From Bacteroidales bacterium (GTDB lineage: Bacteria > Bacteroidota > Bacteroidia > Bacteroidales > UBA932): a stretch of 64,000 bases of DNA. The notes below the pieces were generated by a model that was given only the letters and a program-made list of their open reading frames with translations, was not told the DNA's origin and did not search any database. The position numbers and the translations under genes are program-made. The DNA lies in contig JAKSKO010000001.1 of assembly GCA_024401715.1 (NCBI GenBank), forward strand, positions 6,891-70,890, written 5' to 3'. Numbering within the stretch: the stretch's first letter is position 1; each line of letters starts with the position of its first letter. Positions 1-24,142 of the stretch are shown piece after piece.

Positions 1-1039
1 TGTAGATGTTCTTGAGCATGTTCTCCGGATAAACGGTGAGGTTCTCCAGTATGCCTTTGAAACGGCACAGCATATAGTCCAGAAGTTCTGTGGCATCCGG
101 AAGCATGATACGCTCTGTTGAAGAGTGTGAAATATCCCTCTCATACCACAGGGCCACGTTTTCGTTTGCCGCAGCCATGTATCCGCGCATAACGCGTGCG
201 CAGCCGCAGATATTCTCCGATGATATAGGATTGCGTTTGTGAGGCATTGCCGATGAACCTTTCTGGCCCTTGCGGAAGGCCTCCTCGGCCTCGCGGACCT
301 CGGTACGCTGTGCATTGCGCACCTCGGTTGCCATCTGTTCTATTGTGGAAGCGATAACGGCAAGTGTGGACATATAGAAAGCGTGGCGGTCTCTCTGCAG
401 CACCTGTGTGCTGATGTCCGCGCTGTCTATGCCCAGATGCTCGCAAACATAGTCCTGGATGAACGGAGGGATGTTGGCAAAGTTTCCAACGGCGCCGCTC
501 ATCTTGCCGCACTCCACACCGCGGGCCGCGAATTTGAAGCGCTCTATATTGCGTTTCATCTCCTCATACCACAGAGCCCACTTGAGGCCGTATGAAGTGA
601 TATCGGCATGTATGCCATGTGTACGGCCTATGCACGGAGTGGATTTGAACTCCAGGGCACGCTTGCGCAGAACCTCCAGGTACTCCTCCATATCCTGCAG
701 GAGGATGGCGTTGGCCTGCTTGATGAGAGAACCGTTGGCTGTATCCACAACATCGGTTGAGGTGAGACCGTAGTGAACCCACTTGCGCTCCTGGCCCAGG
801 CTCTCGCTTACGGCACGGGTGAACGCCACCACATCGTGACGGGTCTGTTCCTCTATCTCGTATATGCGCTTTACGTCAAATTTGGCATTGGCGCGTATCT
901 TGTCCACATCCTCTGCAGGGATAACGCCCATTTTGCTCCAGGCCTCGCATGAAAGAATCTCTACGTTGAGGTAGGCGTTGAACTTGTTCTCTTCGGTCCA
1001 AACGTCCCTCATAACTTTGCGGGAATATCTCTCTATCAT
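1..1039 (-). CDS. purB: Adenylosuccinate lyase (3' end runs off the window; absent from the ORF track)
   Basis: Manual translation from ATG at 1039: [20 protein letters not shown]...[34 protein letters not shown]...[14 protein letters not shown] (fumarase/ASL signature). Closely resembles Bacillus-type PurB. Confidence 0.96.
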
Positions 1040-1042
1040 GAT

Positions 1043-1984
1043 TTATTTCTTTAGGAAATTGTTGATGTTTGTCTCTATGCGGCCAAGGATATCATCGCTT
1101 TCCGCACCCTGGAACTTGCAGCCTGTGATGTTCTCGTAAAGCTCCACATAACGTTCTGTGATACCTTTCACAACCTCGGGAGTCATTTCAGGCACCTTCT
1201 GTCCCTCCTGGCCCTGGAAGCCGTTTGCCATAAGCCACTCGCGTACGAACTCCTTTGAAAGCTGTTTCTGGCGCTCGCCTTTTGCCTGGCGCTCTTCATA
1301 GCCTTCGGCATAGAAATAGCGTGATGAATCCGGAGTGTGGATTTCGTCCATCAGAACAATCTTGCCGTCACGTTTGCCGAACTCATATTTGGTGTCTACA
1401 AGGATGAGGCCCATCTTGGCAGCCATCTCGCAACCGCGTGCATAAAGGGCGCGGGTGTAGGCCTCCAGCTGCTCGTAATCCTCACGGCTGACGATACCCT
1501 GGGCAATGATCTCCTCCTTGCTTATATCCTGGTCGTGTCCCTCATCGGCCTTGGTTGTAGGGGTGATGAGCGGCTGTGGGAACTTCTGGTTCTCCACCAT
1601 TCCCTCCGGCATTTCACAGCCGCAGAGAGTGCGTGCTCCGGCCTTGTACTCACGCCATGCATGGCCTGTGAGGTAGCCGCGTATAACCATCTCCACTTTG
1701 AAAGGCTCGCAGCGCCAGCCCACTGTAACCATAGGGTCCACAGCCTCTATCTTCCAGTTTGGAATGATGTCCGATGTTGCGTCAAGGAATTTCTCCGCAA
1801 TCTGGTTGAGGACCTGCCCCTTGAAAGGGATACCCTCCGGAAGAACAACGTCAAATGCGGAGATACGGTCTGTTGCAACCATCACAAGGTAGTCCTTGCC
1901 TATGCTGTATACGTCACGTACCTTACCTGTGTATTTGGCCACCTGGCCGGGAAAATTGAAATCGGTAGCAGTTAGTGCTTTCAT
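1043..1984 (-). CDS. purC: SAICAR synthetase
   Basis: [35 protein letters not shown] motifs. The long 313-aa form is typical of Bacteroidetes. Confidence 0.95.
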
Positions 1985-1990
1985 ATTTTT

Positions 1991-3064
1991 CTAGATTTTA
2001 TGATCACAATATACGCAGCGGACAACGCCGTTCTCCTCGTGGAAAAGAGGGTCCACTTTCTCGTGTGTACTAATACATTTTACATTTGTGCAGCGCAGCT
2101 TTTCATCGCGGAAATACTCCGGATGCTCCGGCATGGCATGCTGTGGGTCGTCCTGCCACTGCAGCAGCAGATACTGAAGGGCCATGCGCACGAATTTGCC
2201 GTTCTCTGTCTGGCGGAAATACGCTGCGCGAGGGTCCGGATCCACATCGGTTGCAATCTCGTTCACGCGCGGAAGCGGATGGAGGACAGCCATAGTTGGT
2301 TTTGCCAGCTTCATCTTGGCTGCATCCAGCACGAAGCTGTCTTTCACGCGCTCGTACTCCTCTTCGTCCAGGAAACGCTCTCGCTGAACGCGTGTCATGT
2401 AAAGCACGTCAAGATCCCCTATCGCGTCTTCAAGATTGCGCACTTCCCTGTACGGGATGCCCAGTTTTTCGCACACATCGGTCTTGATGTAGCTTGGAAG
2501 CTTCAGTTCGTCCGGAGCGATGAGTACAACCTTCACGTCTTTGTAGCGGCTAAGCGCCTTGATGAGGCTGTGAACGGTGCGGCCGAATTTGAGGTCTCCG
2601 CAGAAACCGATGGTGATGCCGTCTATGTGGCCCAGCTCACGTGTGATGGTGAGAAGGTCTGTGAGTGTCTGTGTAGGGTGTGCGTGCGATCCGTCACCGG
2701 CGTTGATGATAGGGATGCGGCTGTGCATGGATGCAACCAGCGGCGCACCCTCAAGCGGATGGCGCATTGCAGCGATATCGGCAAAGTTCTCCACAACGCG
2801 TATGGTATCGGCCACGGTTTCGCCCTTGCTCACCGATGAACTTGCGGCATCGGAGAAGCCCAGAACGTTTCCGCCCAGTTCCATCATGGCCGCAGTGAAG
2901 CTGAGGCGTGTGCGTGTGGACGGCTCGTAGAAAAGGGTTGCCAGTTTGTGGAACTTAAGCACCTCGCGGTACTTTTCCCTGTTGTTTATGATTTCAAGGC
3001 CGAGAGCCACCACCTGGTCTAGCTCTTCCTTGGTGAAATCTGTAGGATCTATGAGATGTTTCAT
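1991..3064 (-). CDS. pyrB: Aspartate carbamoyltransferase catalytic chain with fused C-terminal PyrI-like Zn-binding domain
   Basis: [13 protein letters not shown] and HPLPR motifs. The C-terminal tail is CTNVKC-X19-CVYC. Confidence 0.93.
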
Positions 3065-3066
3065 TG

Positions 3067-3696
3067 CTATTTAATCCAGCTTTCGTCACTTGGGTTATTA
3101 CGGAACTGAATGATGCGCTCTTTCCACTCCGGAGCTATATAGCCCTCGGCTGCGGCAACCTCTACAAGTGCATCCAGGTTGCTTAGAGAATAGTTTACCA
3201 CATTTGCTGCAGCAAGTCTGTCAAGGCCTTTCTGCATGCCGTAGGTGAAGATGCTTACGATGCCAAGAACCTCGGCACCTGCCTCACGCAAAGCCTCAAC
3301 CACGTCGATGGCGCTGCCGCCGGTAGAGATGAGGTCTTCAATAACCACAACCTTTGTGCCCGGTTCCAGACGTCCCTCAATGCGGTTGTTGCGGCCGTGG
3401 CTCTTAGCCTCGCCACGAACATAACCCATTGGAAGGCCCATGATGGATGCTGCGATTGCAGCGTGGGCGATGCCTGCGGTGCTGGTTCCCATAAGGGCCT
3501 CGGCCTGCGGGAACTTTGCAGCAACGGTGTCGGCGATAGCCTGCTCCACAACCACGCGTGCCTGTGGTGCGGAAAGTATGAGGCGGTTGTCACAGTAGAT
3601 TGGGCTTTTGATACCGCTGGCCCAGGTGAACGGTTCTTCCGGACGCAGGAACACTGCCTTGATGTCCAGGAGCTGTTTTGCAATTATCTTTTCCAT
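3067..3696 (-). CDS. pyrE: Orotate phosphoribosyltransferase
   Basis: [16 protein letters not shown] and the PRPP-binding motif [12 protein letters not shown]. Confidence 0.95.
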
Positions 3697-3740
3697 AATT
3701 ATATCTCTCGCGTTGCTTTTGCAACTTATTCATTTTCAAT

Positions 3741-4442
3741 TTAGCCGAGGAACTCTGCCACGCAGCGCTGGTATGCGGCAACAGGGTCTGCAGCGGCGGT
3801 AACCGGGCGGCCCACCACAATGAAATCACTGCCTATTTCGCGTGCTCGTGCAGGGGTTGTTATGCGCACCTGGTCATCGGCCGCAGCATCGGCGAAACGT
3901 ATGCCCGGAGTCACGGCAACAAAGTCCTTACCGCAGCGCTCCTTCACGATGGAAGCCTCCAGCGGAGAGCATACAACGCCGTCCAGGCCAGCCTCCTGCG
4001 CATTTGCAGCGTAGTGTGCGATAACATCGCCTATTGGCTCCTTAATGAGAAGGTCCTTCTCCATGCGCTCCTGCGAAGTTGAAGTGAGCTGGGTTACGGC
4101 AATCAGAAGCGGGCGTGAACCGTCCTCGCGGGTGAGGCCCTCCAGGGCTGCCTTCATCATCTCTATAGTGCCGGCAGCGTGAACGTTTGTCATATCCACA
4201 TCAAGGGCGGAAAGCACCTGCATGGTCTTGCGCACGGTGTTAGGGATATCGTGCAGCTTCAGATCCAGGAAGATCTTGTGGCCGCGTGCCTTTATCTCAC
4301 GCACGATCTGCGGGCCTGCCGCATAATAAAGTTCCATGCCAATTTTCACAAAAGGCTTGCGCGGACAAGCGGCGAACTTGTCCAGGAAAGAAAGCACCTG
4401 TTCTGCACTGCTGAAGTCGCAGGCAACAATCACATCTCTCAT
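3741..4442 (-). CDS. pyrF: Orotidine-5'-phosphate decarboxylase
   Basis: [20 protein letters not shown] and VVGRP motifs. Confidence 0.96.
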
Positions 4443-5353
4443 ACTGTAGCTATTATTTCGTTAAGACAGTTAATTTTCAATTTATCCATAAGAGCGGGAA
4501 GTTCCTCCACTATCTCTTTGCACACCATAGGGTTACGCAGATTTTCGGCTCCCACCTGCACGGCTGTTGCACCGGCCATCATCATCTCCACCACATCACG
4601 TGCCGATGACACTCCGCCGCAGCCCATCACAGGAATCTTCACGGCGTGAGCCACCTGATGCACCATCCTAAGGGCAAGAGGGAAAATGGCGCTGCCGCTG
4701 AAACCGCCGTAGGTATTGGCCACCACAGGTTTGCGGCGCTCTATGTCTATGCGCATGCCCAGCACCGTATTGATGAGGGTGAGACCGTCAGCGCCGGCCT
4801 TTTCGCAGGCAAGGGCAATCTCCACGATATTGCTTACGTTGGGGCTTAGCTTGATGAACACCGGTTTGGCGCCGCAAACAGCCTTCACCGCAGATGTAAC
4901 TTCCGCAGCAGCCTGTGCCGATGTGCCGAAGGCCATGCCGCCGCCGTGCACATTCGGGCAGGAGATGTTCACCTCTATAATGTCTATATCCGGGCAGGCA
5001 GCAGCCTTTGCGCAGCTCTGCACATATTCATCCACGCTGAATCCGCTTATGTTGGCGATGATGCAGCCGCCGTACACCTTGCGAAGGGCGGGAACCTTGT
5101 CTGCAACAAGCACATCCACGCCTGGGTTCTGCAGGCCCACCGCGTTTATCATGCCGCCCGGGCACTCTGCAATGCGCGGGCATTCGTTGCCATAGCGCGG
5201 CTCCAGGGTGCTACCCTTCAGGGAAATGCCGCCAAGGACGTTAAGATCGTACTCCCCCGCCATCTCTATTCCGAAGCCGAAGGTTCCGCTTGCCGGAACA
5301 ACCGGGTTTGCCAGCTTTACGCCGCAAAGCTCCACAGAAAGTCTGTTTACCAT
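4439..5353 (-). CDS. pyrD: Dihydroorotate dehydrogenase family 1B, catalytic subunit
   Basis: [33 protein letters not shown]. Start corrected to MVNRLSV at 5353, which overlaps the pyrK stop and has AAGGAGG 7 nt upstream. Confidence 0.93.
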
Positions 5354-6087
5354 ATCACTTCCTCCTTCTTGAATACCGGACCGTCGGCGCAGACGCGCTT
5401 GGCCCCGCTCTTTGTGTGGCAGGTGCAGCCATAGCATATGCCGCAGCCGCAGCCCATTCTCTCCTCCAGGCTAACTTCGCCCGGACAATCGGCCAGCATA
5501 TCGCACACGGCCTTCATCATAACCTTCGGGCCGCAGCTGTAGAAATAGTCGAACTGCGGGTTCTGCGCCTTGATGGCATCGGTTACCAGGCCCTTGAAAC
5601 CTGCGCTTCCGTCCATGGTGACCACGGTGACATCAGCGCCCAGGGCTTCATATTCGGCCTGCAGTATCACATCGGCAGCGGTGTTGAAGCCAAGATACAC
5701 CTTCACCTGTCTGCCTTTTGCCAGCAGTTCCTTCACAAGGCTGAAGCATGGCGAAGCGCCTATGCCGCCGCAAACCACAAGGGCCTTTGACGCAGGGGCC
5801 GACGCATCGAAACCGTTGCCCAGACCTGTGAGAACGTTTACGCCGGCACCCGGCTGCATTGCCGCCATCACCTCCGTTCCACGGCCTATAACCTTATAGA
5901 TGATGCTGAACTTCTCGCTATCCCATTCAGTAACGGCAAGAGGGCGGCGCAGATAGAAACCGTTCACGGCAACATCCGCGAACTGTCCTCCGCGTAAAAT
6001 GGCCGATGTATCGCCGACCAAAGTCATGCGATACACCCCATCTGCAATACGCCTGTTACTCTCAATTATGTAATCGGCTTTTTTCAT
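5347..6087 (-). CDS. pyrK: Dihydroorotate dehydrogenase electron transfer subunit
   Basis: LRRPLAV FAD motif, GGIGASP, YSCGP, and the [2Fe-2S] motif MGCGCGICYGC...RVCADGP. Confidence 0.94.
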   Translation of the reverse strand: MKKADYIIESNRRIADGVYRMTLVGDTSAILRGGQFADVAVNGFYLRRPLAVTEWDSEKFSIIYKVIGRGTEVMAAMQPGAGVNVLTGLGNGFDASAPASKALVVCGGIGASPCFSLVKELLAKGRQVKVYLGFNTAADVILQAEYEALGADVTVVTMDGSAGFKGLVTDAIKAQNPQFDYFYSCGPKVMMKAVCDMLADCPGEVSLEERMGCGCGICYGCTCHTKSGAKRVCADGPVFKKEEVIW

Positions 6088-9000
6088 CTATTTGTACTCC
6101 TCGTCGATTGTTGAAATGCCAAGGGTAATCTCCTCCAGGACGTCCAGCAGCACGCGCACCGTTTCAAGCGAAGTGAAGAGGGTTACGTTGTTTTCCACTG
6201 CCGCGCGGCGTATGTCATAGCCGTCCAGGCGGGTCTTGTGCTGGTTCACGTCTATGGTGTTTATCACATAGCTTACGTGTCCCTTGTGCATAGAGCGTAC
6301 AATGTCGTCGCTGCCCTCGCTTATCTTCTTCAGGGCGCGGGTGCGTATCCCATGCTCCTTCAGGAATTTCGCCGTTCCGGTGGTCGCCTCAATGTTGAAG
6401 CCCATATTGTAGAAGCGGCGCAGAAGCGGAAGTGCCTCCTCCTTGTCCCTGTCGGCGATGGTTGCGAATACTGTTCCGTAGCTCTTCACCGATACGCCCG
6501 ATGCCTGAAGGCTCTTGTACAGCGCACGGGTGAGTCTCTCGTCATAACCTATGGCCTCACCGGTAGATTTCATCTCAGGAGACAGATAGGTGTCTATGCC
6601 TTTGATTTTTGCGAAAGAGAATGCAGGGCTCTTCACATAGTAGCGCTTGCTCTCCGGATTTATGGTGTTTGTGATGCCCTGTTCCTTAAGGCTGTGTCCC
6701 AGCATTACCATTGTGGCAATCTTTGCCATAGGGATGCCTGTGGACTTGCTTAGGAAAGGAACGGTGCGTGAAGAGCGAGGGTTTACCTCAATCACGTATA
6801 CATCGTCGTTGTCGTCCACGATGAACTGGATATTGTAAAGGCCCACAATGCCAATCTCCTTGCCCAGACGTACTGTGTAGTCCACAATCTTATCCTTCAC
6901 TGCCTGTGAAAGGCTGAATGAAGGATATACGCTGATGGAGTCACCGCTGTGGATACCTGTCTTCTCCACGTGCTCCATGATGCCCGGGATGAATACGTTC
7001 TCGCCATCGCAGATGGCATCCACCTCGCTCTCCTTTCCGGAGATGTATTTGTCCACAAGCACAGGAGAGTTCTCGTTAACCTCCACTGCGTTGTGCAGAT
7101 AGTGGCGCAGGCTTTCCTCGTTGCCCACAATCATCATTGCACGGCCGCCAAGCACGAATGAAGGGCGCACCAGCACAGGGTATCCTATCTCTGCGGCAGC
7201 CTTAACGCCGTCCTCCACATTGGTAACGGCCTTCGCCTTAGGCTGAGGGATACCGGTCTTGCGCATGATGGCCTCGAACAGCTTGCGGTCCTCCGCATTG
7301 TCTATGGCCTGGATCTGTGTGCCTATGATCTTTATGCCGAACTGGGCCAGAGGACCTGCAAGGTTGATTGCGGTCTGGCCGCCAAGGGTTACTATGATGC
7401 CCTCCGGCTTCTCCAGGTCTATGACGTTCATCACATCCTCCACCGTGAGAGGCTCGAAGTAAAGCTTGTCGGAAATTGTGTAGTCCGTAGAAACTGTCTC
7501 AGGGTTGTTGTTGATGATGATGGCCTCGTAACCTGCCTCACGTATCGCCCAGATGGCGTGTACGGTAGAGTAGTCGAATTCCACACCCTGGCCAATGCGG
7601 ATAGGACCCGCACCCAGCACCAGAATCTTCTTGCGGCTGCTTACAACGGTCTCGTTCTCTGTCTCGTAGGTAGAGTAGTAATAAGGAACGTTGGCCTCGT
7701 GCTCTGCACCGCAGCAGTCTATGAACTTATATACAGGACGGATGTTCTGCGCCCAGCGGAACTCTATCATCTCCTTCTCCGTCTTGTCCCAGAGAGAGCC
7801 GATGAATTTGTCGCTGAAACCAAGTTTCTTCGCCTTCAGCAGAAGAGCGGCATCGCCGGGAGCGGCCTTCAGGGCATTCTCCATGCGCACGATGTTGCAG
7901 ATCTTCTCCAGGAACAGCATGTCTATCTTGGTGATATCATAGATGAGACGGATGTCCACGCCGTTGCGGATAAGCTGTGCGATTGCAATAAGATGGTCGT
8001 CCGGGAATTTGGCGATGTATTTGAAAAGGTCGGCATCGCTCATGCCCACGAACTTCTTCTTGTAGATGTGGCTTGCACCAATCTCCAGGCTTCGTATAGC
8101 TTTCAGAAGGCTCTCCTCCAGGGTGCGGCCTATGCTCATCACCTCGCCTGTGGCCTTCATCTGGGTGCCAAGCTCGTTGGCAGCCTCGGCAAACTTGTCG
8201 AACGGGAAGCGTGACACCTTGCTGACAACATAGTCGATAGTTGGCTCGCAGCATGCAGGGGCATCGGCAACCATAATCTCGTCAAGAGTGTAACCCATTG
8301 CTATCTTGGCAGTTACACGGGCAATAGGGAAACCGCTGGCCTTTGATGCAAGGGCCGATGAACGGCTTACGCGAGGGTTGATCTCAATGATATAGTATTT
8401 GAATGAAAGCGGGTCAAGGGCAAACTGCACGTTACATCCGCCTTCAATTTCCAGAGAGCGGATAAGCTTGAGGGCGCTGGCACGCAGTATCTCATACTCC
8501 TTGTCTGCAAGGGTCTGAACCGGAGCCACAACGATGGAGTCGCCGGTGTGAATGCCCACAGGGTCTACGTTTTCCATGGAACAGATACAGATTGCAGTAT
8601 CGTTCTTGTCTCGCATAACCTCGAACTCTATCTCCTTATAGCCTTTCACGCTCTTTTCGATAAGCACCTGATGCACAGGGCTCTGGGTGAGGGCGTTAGG
8701 CATAAGCTCCCTGAGTTCCTCCTCTGTGTTTGCAAAGCCGCCGCCTGTTCCGCCAAGGGTGAAGGCAGGACGAAGCACAACAGGATAGCCTATCTTGGCA
8801 GCCGTATTCACAGCCTCTTCAACACTGTAGCAGATGTCCGATGGGATAACCGGCTCTCCAAGCTCAAGGCAAAGCTCCTTGAACAGCTCCCTGTCCTCGG
8901 CTTTCTCTATGCTCTCGAAGGAAGTTCCCAGAATCTTCACGCCGCACTCGTCAAGCACGCCCTTGCGCGCAAGTTTCACGGCCATGTTAAGACCTGTCTG

Positions 9001-9276
9001 GCCGCCAAGGCCCGGAACTATCGCATCCGGACGCTCGTAACGGATGATCTTTGCTATATATTCAAGGTCCAGAGGCTCCATATAAACCTTGTCGGCCATA
9101 TGGGTGTCAGTCATGATAGTTGCAGGGTTGCTGTTTACAAGGATAACCTCGTAACCCTCCTCTTTGAGGGCAAGACAAGCCTGAGTACCTGCATAGTCGA
9201 ACTCTGCAGCCTGTCCGATAACGATAGGACCGCTGCCTATCACCATTACTTTTTTGATATCTGTTCTGCGTGGCAT
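6088..9276 (-). CDS. carB: Carbamoyl-phosphate synthase large subunit
   Basis: [21 protein letters not shown], two ATP-grasp halves ([22 protein letters not shown]) and a C-terminal MGS-like domain. Confidence 0.97.
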
Positions 9277-9279
9277 GGC

Positions 9280-10356: not shown

Positions 10357-10358
10357 AG

Positions 10359-11513
10359 CTATAGTTTGTATATTGTTTTTCCGTTTATTACAGTCTCAAC
10401 GCAGCGTCCGTACACCTGCCATCCGTCAAAAGGGGTGGCATGGCCGAGGGAGATGAACTCCCTGCTGTCTATGGTGTATGGGTTTTGTATGTCGAACACG
10501 GCGTAATCCACAAGTTCCTCTCCCCTGTAAGGTGAAGGAAGGTGGAAGCGGCGGCGCGGAGCAAGGCTCATAAGGTCTATAAGCTTGCCCAGCGGAATGA
10601 TATCCTTGCGGACGAAATGGGTATAAAGCAGCGGGAAGGCTGTCTCCAGGCCCACAATGCCCATTGCGCTTTTTTCCAGGCCCCTGGATTTCTCTTCGGC
10701 CGAATGCGGGGCGTGATCCGTGGCAATCATGTCTATGGTTCCGTCCAGTATGCCCTCTATCAGCGCCTGCCTGTCTTCGGCCGAACGCAGAGGCGGGTTC
10801 ATCTTGAAACGTCCGTCCTCCTGCAGGTCCCCGTCGCAAAGAAGAAGATAGTGCGGGCCGGTCTCGCAGGTGACATTCACTCCCCTGTCCTTTGCGCGGC
10901 GTATCACATCCACGCTCTCCCTGGTGGAAATATGACAAACGTGATATGCGCAGCCTGTCTCTCCGGCCAAACGCAGATCACGTTCTATCTGTCCCCATTC
11001 GCTCTCGCTGCATATGCCCTTGTGTCCGTGCAGGGCTGCATAGCGTCCGTCATGTATGTATCCGCCCTTCAAAAGGGAATTGTCCTCGCAGTGCGCGGCA
11101 AGAATGCATCCGTTGGCGGCCATCTCTTCCATCGCCTTGCGCATCATTTTTTCGTCCTGCACGCCGCTGCCGTCATCGGAAAAGGCCACAACCCTGTCTT
11201 TCAGCGCCGCAACATCCACAAGTTCCAGACCTTTCCTTCCGATGGTGATGCTTGCGTAGGGCCTTACGTCTATAACGGCGTCGCGCTTTATTATCTCTTC
11301 CTGAAGAGCCAGGTTTCCAAGGCTGTCCGGAACCGGATTCAGGTTCGGCATGGTGGCAACAATACCATAGCCCGATGCCGCCGCTGCGCGTGATCCGGTG
11401 GCAATCGTTTCCTTGTAGGAATAGCCCGGCTCACGGAAATGGACGTGCATATCAACAAAAGCGGGGCATGCCACATAGCCTGTCCCGTACCCGTATGAAT
11501 ATTCTTGCTTCAT
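10359..11513 (-). CDS. pyrC: Dihydroorotase (type I, short N-terminus)
   Basis: DMHVHFREPG, TMPN, HCED, YHVCHIS, FKMNPPLR, IATDHAPH. The metal-ligand motifs are present. Confidence 0.94.
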   Translation of the reverse strand: MKQEYSYGYGTGYVACPAFVDMHVHFREPGYSYKETIATGSRAAAASGYGIVATMPNLNPVPDSLGNLALQEEIIKRDAVIDVRPYASITIGRKGLELVDVAALKDRVVAFSDDGSGVQDEKMMRKAMEEMAANGCILAAHCEDNSLLKGGYIHDGRYAALHGHKGICSESEWGQIERDLRLAGETGCAYHVCHISTRESVDVIRRAKDRGVNVTCETGPHYLLLCDGDLQEDGRFKMNPPLRSAEDRQALIEGILDGTIDMIATDHAPHSAEEKSRGLEKSAMGIVGLETAFPLLYTHFVRKDIIPLGKLIDLMSLAPRRRFHLPSPYRGEELVDYAVFDIQNPYTIDSREFISLGHATPFDGWQVYGRCVETVINGKTIYKL

Positions 11514-11520
11514 CGGGTTA

Positions 11521-11552
11521 CAAAGGTAGCAAGAAAGCCGTTCACACGCAAA
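11521..11552 (-). promoter_or_regulatory. Bacteroidetes housekeeping-sigma promoter for the pyrC-purB operon
   Basis: Minus strand: TTTG (11552-11549), 20-nt spacer, TACCTTTG (11528-11521). Exact match to the TTTG-N19-21-TAnnTTTG consensus. Confidence 0.75.
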
Positions 11553-11608
11553 CTTTTTTTAGATGTTTTATTAACAATCGTATGTTGAAAACTTTTATTC
11601 CCGTTTCA

Positions 11609-11640
11609 TTTGTAAATGATAAATATTGAGAGTAACTTTG
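11609..11640 (+). promoter_or_regulatory. Bacteroidetes housekeeping-sigma promoter for the purE-purD operon
   Basis: TTTG (11609-11612), 20-nt spacer, TAACTTTG (11633-11640), ending 20 nt before the purE ATG. Confidence 0.78.
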
Positions 11641-11660
11641 CGCTTTAATCCTGTATTCTG

Positions 11661-12128
11661 ATGAAGGTAAGCATTATCATGGGCTCCACCTCCGATCTGG
11701 AGGTAATGAAAGCGGCATTTGAAACGCTGGAGCAGTTCGGCATCCCTTATGAAAAGAAAGTGATAAGCGCACACCGCGCACCGGCCCTTCTGGCCGAATA
11801 TGCATCAAGCGCCATTGAAAGGGGCATTGATGTGATTATTGCGGGTGCCGGCGGAGCAGCCCACCTTCCGGGCGTAACCGCAGCCTTCACAACCATTCCC
11901 GTGATCGGAGTGCCTATCAACGGCAAGGCCTTCGGCGGAATGGACGCACTTCTATCCATCGTACAGATGCCATCGGGCATCCCTGTGGCCACGGTGGGCG
12001 TGAACAACTCCAAGAACGCCGCCCTTCTTGCAGCATCAATCCTGTCACTTGGCAGCGCGGACCTTGCCGGCAAACTGCGAGAGTTCCGAAAGCAGCAGGA
12101 GGAGAAAATCAAAAATACCGAAATATAA
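11661..12128 (+). CDS. purE: N5-CAIR mutase (class I PurE)
   Basis: [39 protein letters not shown]. Confidence 0.96.
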
Positions 12129-12140
12129 ACCAGCTCAGCT

Positions 12141-15100
12141 ATGGACAAAAATATCAGAATTTATGTCGAGAAGAAGCCCGGGTTCAGAGTGGAGGCGGAA
12201 AGCCTGCGCACAGAACTTAACGAAAACCTCTCTCTCGGCATAAAAGACTTGCGTTATATCAACGTGTATGACCTTGGCGGTTTCAGCGCCGCACTTCTGG
12301 AGAAATGCAAATACTCCGTTTTCGGCGAAATCGTAACAGACAGGGTTTACGAGTCCCTAAACCTCAACGGCAAGAAATACCTGGCAGTGGAATACATTCC
12401 GGGCCAGTTCGACCAGAGAGCTTCATCGGCCGTGGACTGCGTGCACCTGATAGACCCTTGCGCCGATGTGCAGATCAGAAGCAGCCGCCTGCTTATCTTT
12501 GACGAGGGCGTTTCGGACGCGGACATCGATGCGGTAAGGCACTATTATATAAATGCCGTTGAAAGCCGCGAGAAAGACCTTGGCAAACTTAGCCTTGCAG
12601 AGAATGCGGATGTGAAACCTCTTGCGAAACTGGACGGATTCACCGATATGGCAAGGGAGCAGTTCGCCTCTTTCTGCAAAGAATGGGGCCTTGCAATGAA
12701 TGCAGATGACCTCCAGGAGGTTGTAAACTACTTCCGCAAGGAGGGGCGCAACCCTTCGGAGACAGAGCTTCGCATCCTGGACACATACTGGAGCGACCAC
12801 TGCCGCCACACAACCTTCACAACGGAACTCACATCCATCACCATAGACGATTCCTTCATGAAGGAGGAGATTGAAAGCAGCCTTGGAATGTTCCACGACC
12901 TGCGCAAAGAGCTGGGACGCGAGGGCAAGAGCCTCTGCCTTATGGAGCTTGCAACCATAGGTGCGCGTTACCTGCGCAAGAAAGGCCTGCTGGAAGACAT
13001 GGAGGTTTCCGAAGAGAACAACGCATGCAGCATTTTCGTGGATGTGGACGTTGACGGCCAGCAGGAGAAATGGCTGCTGCAGTTCAAGAACGAGACACAC
13101 AACCACCCAACCGAGATAGAGCCTTTCGGCGGCGCGGCAACCTGTCTGGGCGGCGCCATACGAGACCCTCTCTCCGGCCGTTCATATGTATACCAGGCCA
13201 TGCGCGTAACCGGTGCGGGAGACATCAACAAAGCCGTATCGGAGACAATTCCGGGCAAGCTGCCGCAGAAGGTCATCAGCCGCAAGGCAGCCCACGGATA
13301 CAGCAGCTATGGCAACCAGATAGGCCTTGCAACCACCCATGTACGCGAAATCTACCATAACGGCTACACTGCGAAACGTCTGGAGATAGGTGCGGTTGTG
13401 GGCGCGGTGAAGGCAGACAGCGTAAGGCGTGAAAGCCCTGCAGCGGGAGATGTAATCCTTCTTCTTGGCGGACGCACCGGCCGTGACGGCATTGGCGGAG
13501 CCACAGGTTCTTCCAAAGAGCACACCGAGGCCTCTCTTGAGACCTGCGGCAGCGAGGTGCAGAAAGGTAACGCACCCGAGGAGCGCAAGCTCCAGCGTCT
13601 GTTCCGCCGTCCGGAGGTAACCAGGCTCATCAAGAAATCCAACGACTTCGGCGCGGGCGGCGTAAGCGTTGCCATAGGCGAGCTTGCCGACGGCCTGGAC
13701 ATACGTCTGGACCGCGTGCCAACCAAATACAAGGGCCTGAACCCTACAGAGCTTGCAATCAGCGAGAGCCAGGAGCGTATGGCCGTTGTTGTGGAGGCCA
13801 AAGACAGGGAGGCCTTCGAGGCCTACTGCAACAGCGAGAACGTGGAGGTGACCTATGTTGCCGACGTTACGGATCTGGGCAGAATGAGAATGTATTATGG
13901 CGGGGAGCTTATTGCAGACCTCAGCCGTGAATTCATAGACAGCGCCGGAGCAAAGCACTACAGCCAGGCTGCGATTGCCGCGGTGCAGCAGAAGAATCCT
14001 TTCGCACAGATGCCTCAGGGAGACAATCTCCAGGAAAGGATGATTTCTGTGATGGGCGGCAGGAACGTTGCCTCCCAGAAAGGTCTCATAGAGATGTTCG
14101 ACTCCACCATAGGCCGAAGCACAGTGCTTATGCCTTTCGGCGGAATGACACAGAATACAGAAACACAGGTATCGGCGCAGAAACTTCCTTGCGACGGCTA
14201 CACCGATACTGCCAGCGTCATGGCTTTCGGCTATAACCCGGACCTTGCAAGCTGGAGCCCTTACCATGGTGCGGCCTACGCAGTTGTGGAGGCCTGCGCA
14301 AAGGTTGTGGCTGCCGGTGCGGACTACAGCGGAATGCGCTTCAGCTATCAGGAGTACTTCGAAAGGATGACTGCCGATGCGCACAGCTGGGGCAAGCCTC
14401 TGTCGGCGCTGCTGGGTGCCCTTAAGATGCAGGTGGGCCTGGGCCTTCCTTCCATCGGCGGCAAGGATTCCATGAGCGGAACCTTCGAGCACATAAGCGT
14501 CCCTCCTACCCTTGTTGCCTTTGGCATCACAACCGCAAAGGCATCGAAACTCATCTCCCCTGAATTGAAATGGGAGGGTAACAAGTTGTACCTTATCAAA
14601 CATACAGCGCTGGACAATCATATGCCGGATCTGGAGCAGCTGAAGGCGAACTGGAACTTTGTTCACGAAGCGGTTACGCGCGGAGACATCGTTTCCGGCT
14701 GGAGCGTGGGCTTCGGCGGAGTGGCAGAGGGTCTTGCAAAGATGGCCATGGGCAACATGTTCGGCGTGGACGTGAAACTTCCGGAGGAAGAGCTCTTCGC
14801 ACTGAACTACGGTTCCATCATCGTTGAGAGCCGCACAGAGCTGGATTTCGCCGGCGCCGTTCTTCTTGGCGAGGTAACTTCCGGCGAGGACGACAAGCTT
14901 CACATAAACGGCGAGGCTGTTGATGCCGCCGCACTTCTTTCCGCATGGGAAGGCCGATACAGCAAGGTATACCCAGCTACGGCAGCCGCACAGCACAAGA
15001 AAGTTATCCCTTCGGGCATCAAGGCCGGTTCAAGGAAACGCGCAATCAGATATAAAGGTGAGAAGGTGGAGAAACCGCTGGTGTTCCTGCCTGTATTCCC

Positions 15101-15872
15101 TGGTACTAACTGCGACTACGACTCTGCAAAGGCCTTCCGCAAGGCGGGCGCAGAGGTGCGTTTCGGGGTGTTCTGCAACCTTACCACCGATGACGTTCTC
15201 CGCTCCATCGACATGATGGTGAAGAACATAAGCGAGTGTCACATACTTATGCTGAGCGGTGGTTTCAGCGCGGGTGACGAGCCTGACGGCAGTGCCAAAT
15301 TCATTGCCAACGTGCTTAACAACAAGGCCGTGGCCGATGCAATCCACGCCCTGCTGGACCGCGGAGGCCTTATCGGAGGCATATGCAACGGTTTCCAGGC
15401 TCTTGTGAAGAGCGGCCTGCTTCCATACGGACGCCTTGGCATGGTTACCGAAGACTCTCCTACACTTTTCCGCAACGACATCAACCGTCACATAAGCCAG
15501 ATGGCAACAACACGCATTGCAACCACCTCCTCCCCTTGGCTTGCCGGCCTCAAGGAGGGAGACCTGCATACGATTGCGGTAAGCCACGGCGAGGGCAAGT
15601 TCGTTGTAAGCGAGGCTCTGGCCAGGGAACTGTTCCAGAACGGCCAGGTTGCCTTCCAGTATGTGGATCCCGTTAGCGAGGCCCCTACAATGAAAAGCCC
15701 GTACAACCCTAACGGTTCATACTACGCAATAGAGGGTATCATCAGCCCTAACGGCCAGATTATTGGCAAGATGGGCCACACAGAGCGCTGGGAGCCGGGA
15801 TGCTTCCTTAACATCCAGGAAGAGCTGGAGCAACCTCTGTTCACCAATGCAGTAAATTATTTCAGGAAATAA
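12141..15872 (+). CDS. purL: Single-chain FGAM synthase (large PurL with fused glutaminase)
   Basis: YWSDHCRHTTF, ETHNHPTEIEPFGGAATC, FPGTNC, and intact glutaminase motifs GICNGFQ and GHTER. The N-terminus is of the Streptococcus/Clostridium type. Confidence 0.96.
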   Translation: MDKNIRIYVEKKPGFRVEAESLRTELNENLSLGIKDLRYINVYDLGGFSAALLEKCKYSVFGEIVTDRVYESLNLNGKKYLAVEYIPGQFDQRASSAVDCVHLIDPCADVQIRSSRLLIFDEGVSDADIDAVRHYYINAVESREKDLGKLSLAENADVKPLAKLDGFTDMAREQFASFCKEWGLAMNADDLQEVVNYFRKEGRNPSETELRILDTYWSDHCRHTTFTTELTSITIDDSFMKEEIESSLGMFHDLRKELGREGKSLCLMELATIGARYLRKKGLLEDMEVSEENNACSIFVDVDVDGQQEKWLLQFKNETHNHPTEIEPFGGAATCLGGAIRDPLSGRSYVYQAMRVTGAGDINKAVSETIPGKLPQKVISRKAAHGYSSYGNQIGLATTHVREIYHNGYTAKRLEIGAVVGAVKADSVRRESPAAGDVILLLGGRTGRDGIGGATGSSKEHTEASLETCGSEVQKGNAPEERKLQRLFRRPEVTRLIKKSNDFGAGGVSVAIGELADGLDIRLDRVPTKYKGLNPTELAISESQERMAVVVEAKDREAFEAYCNSENVEVTYVADVTDLGRMRMYYGGELIADLSREFIDSAGAKHYSQAAIAAVQQKNPFAQMPQGDNLQERMISVMGGRNVASQKGLIEMFDSTIGRSTVLMPFGGMTQNTETQVSAQKLPCDGYTDTASVMAFGYNPDLASWSPYHGAAYAVVEACAKVVAAGADYSGMRFSYQEYFERMTADAHSWGKPLSALLGALKMQVGLGLPSIGGKDSMSGTFEHISVPPTLVAFGITTAKASKLISPELKWEGNKLYLIKHTALDNHMPDLEQLKANWNFVHEAVTRGDIVSGWSVGFGGVAEGLAKMAMGNMFGVDVKLPEEELFALNYGSIIVESRTELDFAGAVLLGEVTSGEDDKLHINGEAVDAAALLSAWEGRYSKVYPATAAAQHKKVIPSGIKAGSRKRAIRYKGEKVEKPLVFLPVFPGTNCDYDSAKAFRKAGAEVRFGVFCNLTTDDVLRSIDMMVKNISECHILMLSGGFSAGDEPDGSAKFIANVLNNKAVADAIHALLDRGGLIGGICNGFQALVKSGLLPYGRLGMVTEDSPTLFRNDINRHISQMATTRIATTSSPWLAGLKEGDLHTIAVSHGEGKFVVSEALARELFQNGQVAFQYVDPVSEAPTMKSPYNPNGSYYAIEGIISPNGQIIGKMGHTERWEPGCFLNIQEELEQPLFTNAVNYFRK

Positions 15873-15904
15873 AACACAGGAAATAAAACACAGGAAATAA
15901 AACA
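15863..15904 (+). repeat. Three perfect tandem copies of the 14-mer CAGGAAATAAAACA
   Basis: Copies at 15863-15876, 15877-15890 and 15891-15904. The first contains the purL stop codon. Confidence 0.92.
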
Positions 15905-15915
15905 TTAATAGATAT

Positions 15916-16941
15916 ATGGCCAAAAGTTACGAAAACGCCGGAGTGAATCTGGAAGCCGGTTACGAAGTTGTAAGCCGAATCAAAAAACACGTTGCCTCCA
16001 CTGCCCGCAAGGGTTCAATGGGCGGAATTGGTTCTTTCGGAGGCATGTTTGACCTCTCCCAGCTTGGAATCAAGGAGCCTGTACTTGTAAGCGGTACGGA
16101 CGGCGTGGGAACAAAACTTAAAATTGCCTTTGCGATGGACAAGCACGATACCGTTGGTATTGATGCCGTTGCAATGTGCGTGAACGATGTGCTTGCACAG
16201 GGTGCCGAGCCTCTTGTATTCCTGGATTATGTTGCGGTAGGACACAATATCCCCGCACAGGTGGAGGCTATCGTTGCCGGTGTGGCAGAAGGTTGCCGCC
16301 AGGCAGGTTGCGCCCTTGTTGGAGGCGAGACTGCCGAGATGCCGGGCATGTATGAGGGAGGCGAGTATGATATCGCCGGCTACACCACAGGTGTTGTGGA
16401 GAAATCCAAACTTATTGACGGCAGCAAGGTGAAGGCGGGCGACGTGCTGGTGGGCATCGCTTCAAGCGGCGTTCACAGCAACGGCTTCAGCCTTGTGCGC
16501 AAGATTGTTGCCGATGCAGGCCTCAAGCTCACCGATGAGATTCCGGAGCTTGGCGGAAGACGTCTGGGAGACGTTCTCCTCACCCCTACCCGAATCTATG
16601 TGAAACAGGTGCTGGACGTGATCCGCAACTGCGACGTGCACGGCGTTGCACACATCACCGGCGGCGGTTTTGACGAGAACATCCCGCGTGTGCTTCACGA
16701 GGGACAGGGCCTGGAGATTAAGGAGGGCAGCTGGGAGATTCTTCCTATTTTCCAATGTCTGGAGAAATGGGGAGGCATTCCTCACAGGGAGATGTTCAAC
16801 ATCTTCAACATGGGTATAGGTATGGTGGTTGTGCTGGACGAGAGCGATGCGGCAAAAGCCATCAGCATCCTGGAGAGCCATGGCGAGAAAGCAAGCGTCA
16901 TCGGCAAGGTTACAAACGGTAATACAGTGGAGATTATATAA
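15916..16941 (+). CDS. purM: AIR synthetase
   Basis: [50 protein letters not shown]. Confidence 0.96.
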
Positions 16942-18503
16942 TGAGCAAACGTAGAGCACTTGTCAGCGTAAGCGACAAAACAGGCCTTGTGGATTTCGTG
17001 AAAGGCCTTCAGTCCCTTGATTGGGAGATAATTGCAACCGGCGGCACACAGAAGCTGCTGGAAGACAACGGCGTTCACACCATAGGCATCAGCGAGGTCA
17101 CAGGATTTCCGGAGATTTGCGACGGCCGCGTGAAAACCCTTCATCCTAAGGTACACGGCGGTATTCTTGCACGCCGCGACGTTCCGGAGCACATGGCAAC
17201 CCTGGCACAGGAAGGCATTCAGACAATAGAGCTGGTTTGCGTCAACCTGTACCCTTTCAAACAGACCATCGCAAAACCCAACGTATCAATGGAGGACGCC
17301 ATAGAGAACATCGATATCGGAGGTCCTTCAATGGTGCGCAGCGCCGCAAAGAACTGGCGTGACGTGAACATTGTATGCGACCCTGCAGACTATGCAACAG
17401 TGCTGGGAGAGCTCCAGGCAAACGGCTGGACAAGCGACGAGACCCGTCTAAAACTTAGCGCCAAGGCATACACCCACACTGCAGAGTATGATATGATGAT
17501 CTCCACCTACATGCGCGCACAGGCCGGCCTTCCGGAGAAACTCTTCCTGGAGTACGACATCAGGCAGAGCCTGCGCTACGGAGAAAACCCTCATCAGAAC
17601 GCAAAATTCTTCGCCGCCCTGGAGCCTGTTCCATTCTCTTTGGCATCGGCAAGACAGCTTAACGGCAAAGAACTGTCATACAACAACATACAGGACGCAA
17701 ACGCAGCGCTTAACATTGTGCGCGAGTTTGGCGACACCCCTTTCTGCGTGGGCCTGAAACACATGAATCCGTGCGGCGCAGCAATAGGCAAGGACGTTGT
17801 GGAGGCATGGACTAAGGCATACGAGGCCGACAAGGTGAGTATCTTCGGCGGCATCGTGGCAACAAACTGCGAGCTCACACGCGAGGCCGCGGAACTGATG
17901 AAGCCTATCTTCCTTGAGATTATCATGGCTCCTAAGTTCAGCGAGGGCGCCCTGGAGGTGCTTTCGGCAAAGAAGAACCTTCGCCTTCTGGAGGTGGACA
18001 TGAGCAAGGACAATGCAACCCACATGCAGTATGTAAGCGTGAACGGCGGTATGCTGGCCCAGGAGCTGGACACAGACACCGTGCAGCTTACAGAGGAGAT
18101 GTGCGTTACAGAGCTTAAGCCAAGCGCAGAGCAGATGACAGACATGCAGTTCGCATGGAGAATTGTGAAACACGTGAAATCCAATGCAATCGTTGTAGTG
18201 AAGAACGGCATGACACTGGGTGTTGGTGCAGGTCAGATGAACCGCGTTGGTTCTGCAGGCATTGCTTTGAAACAGGCCGAAGCCACTCTGGCAGCCGAGG
18301 GCAAGGATATACGCGAGGAAGGCCTTGTTATGGGTTCCGACGGTTTCTTCCCATTCGGAGACAGCGTGGAGAGCGCAGCCGAGTATGGCATCAAGGCAAT
18401 TGTGCAGCCAGGTGGCAGCGTGCGTGACGACGAAAGCGTGAACGCCGCCAACAAGCACGGCATCACCATGCTTATGACAGGCATGCGTCACTTCAAACAC
18501 TAA
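16941..18503 (+). CDS. purH: Bifunctional AICAR transformylase / IMP cyclohydrolase
   Basis: ALVSVSDK, GRVKTLHP, IENIDIGGP, LRYGENPHQ, KHVKSNAIV, SDGFFPF. The start overlaps the purM stop (TAATG). Confidence 0.96.
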   Translation: MSKRRALVSVSDKTGLVDFVKGLQSLDWEIIATGGTQKLLEDNGVHTIGISEVTGFPEICDGRVKTLHPKVHGGILARRDVPEHMATLAQEGIQTIELVCVNLYPFKQTIAKPNVSMEDAIENIDIGGPSMVRSAAKNWRDVNIVCDPADYATVLGELQANGWTSDETRLKLSAKAYTHTAEYDMMISTYMRAQAGLPEKLFLEYDIRQSLRYGENPHQNAKFFAALEPVPFSLASARQLNGKELSYNNIQDANAALNIVREFGDTPFCVGLKHMNPCGAAIGKDVVEAWTKAYEADKVSIFGGIVATNCELTREAAELMKPIFLEIIMAPKFSEGALEVLSAKKNLRLLEVDMSKDNATHMQYVSVNGGMLAQELDTDTVQLTEEMCVTELKPSAEQMTDMQFAWRIVKHVKSNAIVVVKNGMTLGVGAGQMNRVGSAGIALKQAEATLAAEGKDIREEGLVMGSDGFFPFGDSVESAAEYGIKAIVQPGGSVRDDESVNAANKHGITMLMTGMRHFKH

Positions 18504-18507
18504 AACC

Positions 18508-19773
18508 ATGAAGAAAGTACTTGTAATAGGCGGAGGCGGCAGGGAGCATGCCATTGTGGATGCCCTCTACCGCAGCCCGCAGGTTGGAAAGATATATTGC
18601 GCACCGGGCAACGCAGGCATAGCCCGGCAGGCAGAATGCGTGGCCATCAAGGACAATGACGTTGCAGCCCTGTTGGCTTTCGCAAAGGAAAAGGAGATAG
18701 ACCTTACCGTTGTAGGCCCGGAAGCTGCACTTGCAGCCGGCGTGGTTGATGCTTTCCGCGCGGAAGGCATGAAAATCTTCGGCCACAGCAAGGCGGCAAC
18801 AAGAATTGAGAGCAGCAAAGAGTTTGCAAAGCAGATCATGGAGAAATATGATGTGCCAACCGCCGCCTACAAGAGTTTCACCTCTTATGAGGAGGCCCTG
18901 GCCTACGTTTCTGCACGCCCCTTCCCTGCAGTTCTGAAATATGACGGACTTGCAGCAGGCAAGGGTGTGGTTATTGCAGAGGACCTGGCCCAGGCCGACG
19001 AGGCCCTGCGCGACATGCTGCTGGACTCGGCCTTCGGCCATGAAGGCAAAGTGGTGGTTGAGGACTTCCTTACCGGTCCGGAATTTTCTTTCATGTGTTT
19101 CGTGGACGGGGCGAAGGTGTATCCTATGCCTCTTTCACAGGACCACAAGCGCGCTTTTGACGGAGACAAAGGTCCGAATACCGGCGGCATGGGTGCATAC
19201 ACCGGTCTGCCTTTCATCACGGAAGAGGACAGGGAGTTCGCCCTGCGCGAGGTTCTGGAAAAGACCGCCGCAGCAATGGTTGCAGAGGGTTGCCCTCTTA
19301 GCGGTGTGCTGTACGGCGGCCTCATGAAGACACCGTCGGGTGTGAAGGTGATAGAGTTCAACGCCCGTTTCGGAGACCCGGAGACAGAAGTTGTGCTGCC
19401 GCTTATAGATTCCGACATCTATGACGTATTCGAAGCTGTTGCAACAGGCAGGGAACTTTCCGGCCCCGTTGTGTGGAGCAACGATATCACAATGGGAGTT
19501 GTGCTGGCATCCAAGGGCTATCCCGGCTCATACGAGAAAGGCCACGAAATATGCATCCTGGAGCACCCGGGCCGCATTTTCCACATGGGAACCAAGGCCA
19601 CAGGCGAGGAGGGAAAATATCTTACTGCAGGCGGACGCGTGATGATGTGCGTTGCCCGCGCCTCATCTCTGGAAGAGGCCCGCAGCAATGCCTATGCCAC
19701 AGTTGCCGCAGTGAAATGCAGCAATCTCTTCCATCGCAGCGACATTGCCCACTGGGCATTTGAGCAGCGCTAA
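18508..19773 (+). CDS. purD: Phosphoribosylamine-glycine ligase
   Basis: VIGGGGREHA, APGNAG, DGLAAGKGV, QDHKR, GPNTGGMG, IEFNARFGDPE. Confidence 0.97.
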   Translation: MKKVLVIGGGGREHAIVDALYRSPQVGKIYCAPGNAGIARQAECVAIKDNDVAALLAFAKEKEIDLTVVGPEAALAAGVVDAFRAEGMKIFGHSKAATRIESSKEFAKQIMEKYDVPTAAYKSFTSYEEALAYVSARPFPAVLKYDGLAAGKGVVIAEDLAQADEALRDMLLDSAFGHEGKVVVEDFLTGPEFSFMCFVDGAKVYPMPLSQDHKRAFDGDKGPNTGGMGAYTGLPFITEEDREFALREVLEKTAAAMVAEGCPLSGVLYGGLMKTPSGVKVIEFNARFGDPETEVVLPLIDSDIYDVFEAVATGRELSGPVVWSNDITMGVVLASKGYPGSYEKGHEICILEHPGRIFHMGTKATGEEGKYLTAGGRVMMCVARASSLEEARSNAYATVAAVKCSNLFHRSDIAHWAFEQR

Positions 19774-20345: not shown

Positions 20346-20366
20346 ATTTTTGATCTTGTGTCTCAC

Positions 20367-24135: not shown

Positions 24136-24142
24136 TATCACA

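Follow-up and report, generated by a model that had tools for sequence, protein, structure and literature searches.

A divergent purine and pyrimidine gene cluster of probable Bacillota-type xenologues joined to native genes in a gut Bacteroidales genome

The DNA analyzed here is a 64-kb stretch (the window) spanning positions 6891–70890 of contig C1 in a Bacteroidales metagenome-assembled genome (MAG) of 1.98 Mb, comprising 79 contigs with a guanine-plus-cytosine (GC) content of 50.6%. Positions 1–19773 of the window are filled by 15 pur, pyr, and car genes of de novo purine and pyrimidine synthesis. In the reading preferred here, to which a probability of about 0.85 is assigned, these genes form Bacillota-type xenologous pur and pyr operons that stand back to back, are joined to native genes, and lie under host promoters in a gut Bacteroidales lineage. 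Xenologues of Bacillota type would then encode nearly all of de novo pyrimidine synthesis and the greater part of the purine pathway. Horizontal acquisition, which a first-pass annotation of the sequence had proposed, is well supported, in that gene trees against Bacteroidota and Bacillota place twelve of the proteins with Bacillota; the direction of transfer would have been from Bacillota to Bacteroidales. The imported genes appear to have replaced scattered native genes, with carAB alone kept in two versions. Genes for accessory traits, carbohydrate use and resistance among them, are well known to move between Firmicutes and Bacteroidetes of the gut, whereas here about a dozen housekeeping genes are involved. 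The cluster is read as a clear, unusually complete xenologous replacement of housekeeping pathways rather than a new kind of system.

Origin of the encoded proteins

Scans with NCBIfam profiles name every large open reading frame (ORF) of positions 1–19773 and, together with the coordinates (Table 1), confirm the layout given in the first-pass annotation: 15 contiguous genes, of which ten run leftward (in order from the spacer pyrC, carA, carB, pyrK, pyrD, pyrF, pyrE, pyrB, purC, and purB) and five run rightward (purE, purL, purM, purH, and purD) from a 147-bp spacer. The N-terminal strings quoted there were all found as well. Intergenic gaps range from −7 to 44 nt within the arms (−1 to 43 nt from purE to purD), and each arm is probably transcribed as an operon from one of two host-type promoters in the spacer. 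The purB gene at the window edge is complete on the contig, where it encodes 431 amino acids (aa); on TIGR00928 the full gene scores 530 bits and the window fragment 455 bits.

The proteins were compared with those of 60 Bacteroidales genomes (one per family, including G006 from the same genus), 28 genomes of other Bacteroidota, 73 genomes of the same family as the window genome (species representatives from 37 genera), nine genomes of Bacillota (an Acholeplasmatales member, two Anaeroplasmataceae, Holdemania, Paenibacillus, Staphylococcus, Enterococcus, Streptococcus, and one Bacillota MAG), and dozens of window-like loci in MAGs. Maximum-likelihood trees were calculated in IQ-TREE under LG+C20 for PurB, PurM, PurD, PurH, CarA, CarB, PyrB, PyrC, PyrD, PyrE, PyrF, and PyrK, while for PurL only a quick tree of a single subtype was made. 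Approximately unbiased (AU) tests used a single Bacteroidota clade as the alternative topology.

Among the purine proteins, PurB sits with Bacilli, and a branch of about ten substitutions per site (support 100/100) separates it from the typical Bacteroidales form, to which the G006 protein belongs. Its identity is 61–68% to the Paenibacillus and Enterococcus proteins versus 25–27% to the typical Bacteroidales protein. On TIGR00928 the PurB proteins of the window, G043, and G044 score 530–555 bits; among the remaining 58 genomes of the 60-family sample, 52 (including G006) score 363–419 bits, and six give partial or weak matches only. A homologue search with PurB returned only matches of at least 85% identity, all from Bacteroidales MAGs where a name is given, and offers no pointer to a donor. 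PurM forms a clade with Anaeroplasmataceae, Acholeplasmatales, and Holdemania (100/97) inside Bacilli; the typical Bacteroidales PurM is a divergent protein of ∼400 aa that scores 55–120 bits on TIGR00878, with no match at 1e-25, and Bacillota proteins score 372–542 bits. PurD is nested in Bacillota (98/99; AU p = 1.2e-6), and PurH is split from typical Bacteroidota (100/100) as sister to Acholeplasmatales (100/99; AU p = 4e-4). In both of these trees the typical Bacteroidales proteins cluster with those of the other Bacteroidota classes, which is the signal of vertical inheritance. Typical Bacteroidales carry another PurL of ∼1234 aa, scoring 88–114 bits on TIGR01857, compared with 1376–1878 bits for Bacillota (1873–1878 for Anaeroplasmataceae), and in the quick tree the window PurL is sister to that of Anaeroplasmataceae.

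The pyrimidine arm gives a similar picture. CarB is nested in Bacillota (100/100; AU p = 0.0018), with profile scores of 1360–1670 bits for Bacillota versus 757–829 bits for typical Bacteroidales, and a second CarB encoded on contig C29 groups with that of G006 within the typical Bacteroidales clade (100/100). CarA is placed with Holdemania, Acholeplasmatales, and Anaeroplasmataceae (99/97), as are PyrF (96/90) and PyrE (100/99; AU p = 3.4e-4). The PyrF hidden Markov model finds no match in typical Bacteroidales at 1e-25 and scores Bacillota proteins at 237–351 bits. PyrD is placed with Holdemania and Acholeplasmatales (99/98), and its AU test weakly rejects a single Bacteroidota clade (p = 0.016). 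PyrC is split from typical Bacteroidales (100/100) and sits with Bacillota, which score 272–457 bits (Streptococcus 202) versus 93–150 bits for typical Bacteroidales.

Grouping with Bacteroidales orthologues fails for PurB, PurL, PurM, PurH, PurD, CarA, CarB, PyrC, PyrD, PyrK, PyrF, and PyrE, and holds for PurC, PyrB, and a PurF-like protein encoded just left of the window. PurC has 59–76% identity to proteins in nearly all 60 sampled Bacteroidales families versus 27–38% to Bacillota PurC, in agreement with its earlier description as the native long Bacteroidetes type. PyrB, which the first-pass annotation had by implication counted among the Firmicutes-like genes, is instead of Bacteroidales type: it lies on a long branch with typical Bacteroidales, separated from Bacillota at 100/100, and the corresponding scores are 246–303 bits for typical Bacteroidales versus 100–118 bits for Bacillota. 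The scores and trees bear out the other assignments made there, namely that PurB, PurM, PurL, PyrF, and PyrE are Bacillota-like and unlike the usual Bacteroidales type, less securely so for PurL. The nearest sampled relatives of the imported-type proteins are those of Holdemania, Acholeplasmatales, and Anaeroplasmataceae.

Several points weigh against this reading. The trees are unrooted, and the Bacillota references are narrow, being nine genomes of Bacilli in the sense of GTDB (including Mollicutes-like lineages and Erysipelotrichales); because Clostridia, Negativicutes, Fusobacteria, and Spirochaetes are not among them, the actual donor may belong to a lineage outside the sample. The placement of PurL and PurE with Bacillota is less secure than that of the other proteins: PurL is placed without an outgroup of the same subtype, and the PurE scores are non-discriminating (158–205 bits for typical Bacteroidales and other Bacteroidota classes, 162–218 for Bacillota, 211–236 for G044 and G006, and 232–308 for named window-like MAGs), the presumed origin of PurE being taken from its linkage to purL–purD. 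The AU test leaves Bacteroidota monophyly of PyrC standing (p = 0.28), and PyrK is placed with Holdemania and Acholeplasmatales with a modest support of 86/88 that is weaker than for the other genes. The absence of native copies rests on a MAG that is 90% complete, and more distant copies of the same protein types are carried by G008, G014, G037, G047, and G087 (Bacteroidales, Bacteroidia).

Distribution among relatives and alternative origins

In the order-wide sample the imported type occurs in only 2–7 of 60 families. Within the family of the window genome, ∼10 of 73 genomes carry the window-type pur operon and four carry the window-type pyrC, with both arms side by side in three (G000, G114, and G156). 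Since ∼61 of the 73 keep the native genes, as judged by typical Bacteroidales PurH and PurD, the imported trait is patchily distributed and is no ancestral feature of this group. The pur arm recurs at many Bacteroidales MAG loci, roughly half of which also show the divergent pyr/pur layout, with or without carAB; the closest named loci around PurE belong to Candidatus Cryptobacteroides and Bacteroidales MAGs from horse and ruminant guts. The host is read as a small-genome gut Bacteroidales near Candidatus Cryptobacteroides, an identity also supported by the SusC/SusD pair in the window and by the Bacteroidales-wide matches of PurC and the PurF-like protein. Papers in which both names occur appear to assign Cryptobacteroides to GTDB family UBA932. 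G044, from another family, has a tandem arrangement, pyrC-K-D-F-E-B ... purE-L-M-H-D-purT-purB ... native carB ... purF-like.

A single acquisition, as the first-pass annotation had proposed, does not fit this distribution. The same-genus genome G006 has the imported pur arm together with native pyr genes and a native PurB, which indicates separate histories for the pur arm, the pyr arm, and purB, and G143 has the pyr type only. In addition, the PurM of G043 pairs with that of Holdemania (99/98), apart from the window clade, and this placement, together with the group of more distant copies, points to repeated traffic and to a history more complex than one transfer. The proposed old age of the acquisition stands in part: host-like composition and an occurrence in several genera from no fewer than three families favor it, and the patchiness of the trait, with native genes in most of the family, does not.

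Among the cluster genes only carAB has second copies in the window genome, so the imported genes either replaced native ones or restored a lost pathway. The data fit both courses; replacement is the one adopted in the preferred reading, and in some lineages a pathway lost earlier may have been regained through the cluster. Two small, near-complete genomes, G164 from the same genus (100% complete, 1.6 Mb) and G129 from the same family (98%, 1.7 Mb), yielded no match for the five genes of the pur arm (nor, in G164, for PurM) and are probably purine auxotrophs.

Vertical inheritance, in which the window would retain the ancestral state of Bacteroidota and the typical Bacteroidales proteins would be the derived ones, is highly improbable. 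Bacteroidota classes other than Bacteroidia do have a canonical PurM (240–313 bits) and somewhat higher PurH and PurD scores than typical Bacteroidales, and on this basis part of the distance to typical Bacteroidales can be ascribed to divergence within Bacteroidia. However, the PurD and PurH trees put these classes beside typical Bacteroidales, away from the window; one Bacteroidota clade is rejected by the AU tests for PurD, PurH, PyrE, CarB, and PyrD; and for PurM, PurD, CarB, and CarA the window clade falls inside Bacilli. Retention of a native CarB beside the imported one, and the presence of typical forms both in most genomes of the family and, for PurB and the pyr genes, within the same genus, likewise argue for import. 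Equally slight is the probability that assembly or binning brought a Firmicutes fragment into a Bacteroidales genome. The sequence does come from a MAG, and a related bin (L007/G099) looks mixed in that it has two sets of pur genes; but on the contig the native-type purC, pyrB, and PurF-like genes are interleaved with imported-type genes at gaps of 2–6 nt, both promoters are of Bacteroides type, and the same 110-kb contig holds purT and a SusC/SusD pair (57987–63080 of the window). The imported genes have GC fractions of 0.52–0.57, with 0.60–0.66 at third codon positions (GC3), the same as native purC and pyrB in the cluster and within about one standard deviation of the long ORFs of the genome (GC 0.515 ± 0.029, GC3 0.599 ± 0.063), and are far from the 29–34% GC of the Mollicutes-like relatives; the Holdemania locus has 56%. 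Finally, independent assemblies from different studies show the same mosaic in dozens of MAGs, whose sources include horse, goat, buffalo, yak, and deer.

The direction of transfer deserves separate consideration, since gut Mollicutes-like bacteria and Erysipelotrichales could have received the operons from Bacteroidales, or both could have received them from a third lineage such as Clostridia. For the pur arm, the unusual single-chain PurL and the purE-L-M-H-D order are common to the window and its nearest sampled relatives, Anaeroplasmataceae, Acholeplasmatales, and Holdemania, whereas Bacillales and Lactobacillales have a PurL split into PurL/Q/S; Clostridia lie outside the sample, and the pairing of the G043 PurM with Holdemania again suggests repeated traffic. 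Such an origin is nevertheless considered unlikely, if less so than the two preceding alternatives. For CarB, CarA, PurM, PurD, and PyrF the joint clade arises from among other Bacilli (Lactobacillales, Staphylococcus, and Paenibacillus), the pyr gene order is the general order of Bacillota, the canonical active site of CarA persists in the Bacillota copies and is lost in the Bacteroidales ones, and Bacteroidia as a class use other subtypes.

The relatives provide a natural and repeatedly sampled series of intermediates, with a nine-gene pur operon, a pyr arm with or without carAB, and arms in tandem or divergent, which could be used to study operon domestication across a barrier of promoter grammar. 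They also warn that, for these gut lineages, "core" biosynthetic genes can be a misleading basis for metabolic reconstruction and taxonomic binning. One MAG labeled "uncultured Clostridia bacterium" (L007/G099) contains a window-like Bacteroidales pur cluster (77–88% identity) and a second PurL, PurM, and PurD elsewhere, and this bin looks mixed or mislabeled.

Comparison with known operons and completion of the pathways

The pyr operon of Bacillus subtilis has the order pyrR-pyrP-pyrB-pyrC-pyrAA-pyrAB-pyrK-pyrD-pyrF-pyrE. The Holdemania locus (G092:C20) has pyrB-pyrC-(carA)-carB-pyrK-pyrD-pyrF-pyrE, and the order pyrC-carA-carB-pyrK-pyrD-pyrF-pyrE is common to the loci of the window, Holdemania, Anaeroplasmataceae, Enterococcus, and Paenibacillus. 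The window resembles the B. subtilis-type operon in this core gene order, in its class 1B dihydroorotate dehydrogenase with PyrK, in a pathway-dedicated carbamoyl-phosphate synthetase with a second one elsewhere, and in the clustering of its proteins with Bacillota. It differs in lacking pyrR (none was found in the cluster by NCBIfam scans), pyrP, and an attenuator leader, in having a Bacteroides-type promoter with almost no leader, in its CarA without the nucleophilic Cys, and in the appended purC and purB. Moreover, pyrB is promoter-proximal in Bacillota pyr operons, whereas in the window no Firmicutes pyrB precedes pyrC and the Bacteroidales-type pyrB is at the distal end. The leftward core would thus have kept a Bacillus/Erysipelotrichales order to which a Bacteroidales-type pyrB, a native purC, and a Bacillus-type purB were added distally. 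The C-terminal ∼55 aa of PyrB (window ∼1991–2150) match Pfam PyrI_C at residues 323–357 (7.9e-9), and no separate pyrI is present in the cluster.

Pur operons have the order purEKBCSQLFMNHD in B. subtilis and purECFMNHD in clostridia. The window pur arm shares with Firmicutes operons the relative order E ... L ... M ... H ... D, and with the purE-L-M-H-D operons of Anaeroplasmataceae (L028, L029) both the order and the single-chain TIGR01857 PurL, which is also found in Acholeplasmatales and Holdemania. Unlike Firmicutes operons, it has no purK, purS/Q, purC, purF, or purN, nor was a purine riboswitch or a leader of the PurR type detected, and the pathway of the window genome is completed by PurT and an unlinked PurF. 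A relative, L004, has a nine-gene operon, purC(short)-purE-purL-purC'-purF-purM-purN-purH-purD, and the five-gene arm may be a trimmed version of such a longer Firmicutes-style operon, with the missing steps filled by purF on C29 and by purT 5.5 kb downstream. On the preferred reading, foreign operons were rebuilt under host promoters, with donor RNA regulation gone, native pyrB and purC fused on, and the pur arm trimmed where PurF and PurT serve.

Compared with the typical Bacteroidales organization, the window genome covers the same pathway steps, and its PurC, PyrB, PurF-like protein, and second CarAB are of that type. In the few well-assembled typical genomes inspected, the genes are far apart or on separate contigs, no pur/pyr supercluster was seen, and PurB, PurL, PurM, PyrF, and PyrC are of other subtypes (25–30% identity or no match at 1e-25).

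The canonical purF was located at C29:14215–15567 by tblastn with the operon PurF of a relative (60% identity); its product begins with a B. subtilis-like propeptide followed by Cys, and directly after it lies the second carA-carB pair, whose products are 37% and 40% identical to the cluster copies. The PurF-like gene that follows purB just left of the window (C1:4965–6392, minus strand) encodes 475 aa starting with MGGLFG. This protein lacks Cys1, reaches only 189 bits on TIGR01134 (cut-off 350), and has counterparts of 54–65% identity in most of the 60 Bacteroidales families sampled; the G044 copy starts with MAGFFG. PurN was not found in the genome. PurT is present and PurN absent in the genomes with the five-gene form (G000, G006, and G044), and purN lies inside the pur operon in G104, G114, and G156, a pattern indicating that purT supplies the step for which the operon has no purN. 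Between purD and purT lies a 5.5-kb efflux module of TetR, TolC, HlyD, and ABC-2 genes (19770–25249). In G044 purT stands directly between purD and purB, which suggests that the module was inserted into a once longer cluster.

Table 1. Features of the pur/pyr cluster and its control region (window coordinates).
Feature	Position	Strand	Basis or remark
purB (adenylosuccinate lyase), Bacillus type	1–1039	−	3' part, rest beyond left window edge; ORF 2–1039
purC, long native Bacteroidales type, 313 aa	1043–1984	−	NF009251, 484 bits
pyrB, Bacteroidales type with fused PyrI_C zinc-domain tail	1991–3064	−	TIGR00670
pyrE, Bacillota-like	3067–3696	−	Tree and AU test
pyrF, Bacillota-like	3741–4442	−	Tree
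pyrD (class 1B), Bacillota-like	4439–5353	−	ORF open to 5437; likely start 5353; NF005574 from residue 31
pyrK, Bacillota-like	5347–6087	−	NF000799
carB (pyrAB-like), Bacillota-like	6088–9276	−	Extra copy besides native carB on contig C29
carA (pyrAA-like), Bacillota-like	9280–10356	−	Ser replaces glutaminase Cys
pyrC, short (384 aa) Bacillota-like dihydroorotase	10359–11513	−	First gene of leftward operon
Divergent control region, 147 bp	11514–11660		Read from sequence
Bacteroides-type promoter, pyr arm, TTTG-N20-TACCTTTG	11521–11552	−	8 nt from pyrC ATG
Imperfect palindrome TTAACAATCGTATGTTGAAAAC	11571–11592	+	Window copy of conserved TTATCAACA-N6-8-TGTTGA(A/T)AAC element
Bacteroides-type promoter, pur arm, TTTG-N20-TAACTTTG	11609–11640	+	21 nt before purE ATG
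purE	11661–12128	+	TIGR01162
purL, single-chain TIGR01857 type	12141–15872	+	TIGR01857, 1739 bits
purM, canonical type	15916–16941	+	Tree, nested in Bacillota
purH, Bacillota-like	16941–18503	+	Tree and AU test
purD, Bacillota-like	18508–19773	+	Tree and AU test
purT (formate-dependent glycinamide ribonucleotide transformylase)	25255–26436	−	NF006766, 619 bits

Two details of individual genes may be added. The pyrC product is without ∼40 N-terminal residues of the profile, its match beginning at profile position 50 of 428, and the G044 copy has 375 aa. The TetR-like gene of the efflux module (19770–20384, minus strand) overlaps purD by 4 nt.

The control region and active-site changes

Promoters read by the Bacteroides primary sigma factor have TTTG at −33 and TAnnTTTG at −7, as known from the B. 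fragilis promoter literature. The consensus TTTG-N19-21-TAnnTTTG has four matches in the window versus 0.46 expected, and none of 100 shuffles reached four. Two of the four lie in the spacer, each facing its own operon, and their −7 boxes are conserved in relatives; with both spacing and orientation correct, the host-type promoters proposed in the first-pass annotation fit the consensus. The other two matches are at 19759–19791 (plus strand), overlapping the last purD codons, and at 20322–20352 (plus strand), just upstream of the TolC gene. Rfam models detected no purine, ZTP, or PRPP riboswitch, PyrR site, or T-box in positions 1–24000 at E ≤ 1, and the −7 box of the pyr promoter is so close to the pyrC ATG that there is no room for a pyr leader. 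The leader devices of Firmicutes, PyrR attenuators and a purine riboswitch, would accordingly have been lost.

Between the two promoters lies an imperfect palindrome. The TTATCAACA element, as judged by eye, is present in ∼29 of 44 pur promoter regions of relatives, where it stands 44–62 nt upstream from the −7 box; loci whose pur promoter has no pyr operon opposite are among them. A genome scan for the full palindrome returned the window copy and one weak match only, and the half-site is common in coding sequence. A doubled half-site, TTGTTGAAAACTT, precedes nrdD (C15:19435–19460), and several copies are found in the ruvB-mfd spacer (C19:4365–4627); as candidate members of a regulon these sites are suggestive. 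The half-site differs by one base from a DnaA box (TTATCCACA). Any co-regulation, and with it the joint control of both arms suggested in the first-pass annotation, is at present a hypothesis. A separate candidate, an E. coli-like PUR-box half-site (ACGCAAAC) in the spacer, was rejected as a chance match, as it is not conserved in relatives.

It is doubtful, although not far-fetched, that the imported operons have adapted doubly, by recruiting a new shared operator and also by losing glutamine-hydrolyzing nucleophiles. Under this proposal the TTATCAACA palindrome, midway between the promoters, would allow a nucleotide-responsive regulator or DnaA to control both operons together with ribonucleotide reduction, and the change of Cys to Ser or Gly in CarA, along with Met-Ser or Met-Gly at Cys1 in the PurF of relatives, would yield ammonia-using enzymes. 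If this were true, such forms would suit the ammonia-rich rumen and hindgut. In the alignment, codon 252 of the window carA (9601–9603) encodes Ser at the position of the glutaminase nucleophile (GISLGMA). Among relatives this position is Gly in L004, L017, L026, and L035 and Cys in L006, and Cys is kept in all nine Bacillota CarA proteins and in the native CarA of C29. The active site of the imported CarA thus seems to have decayed after transfer, and the protein may use ammonia. The operon PurF of ∼40 related MAGs (loci L003–L064) begins with MSVFG or MGVLA, with Met in place of Cys1. The start of the L004 operon purF (14923–16284) is considered real because a stop codon lies four codons upstream.

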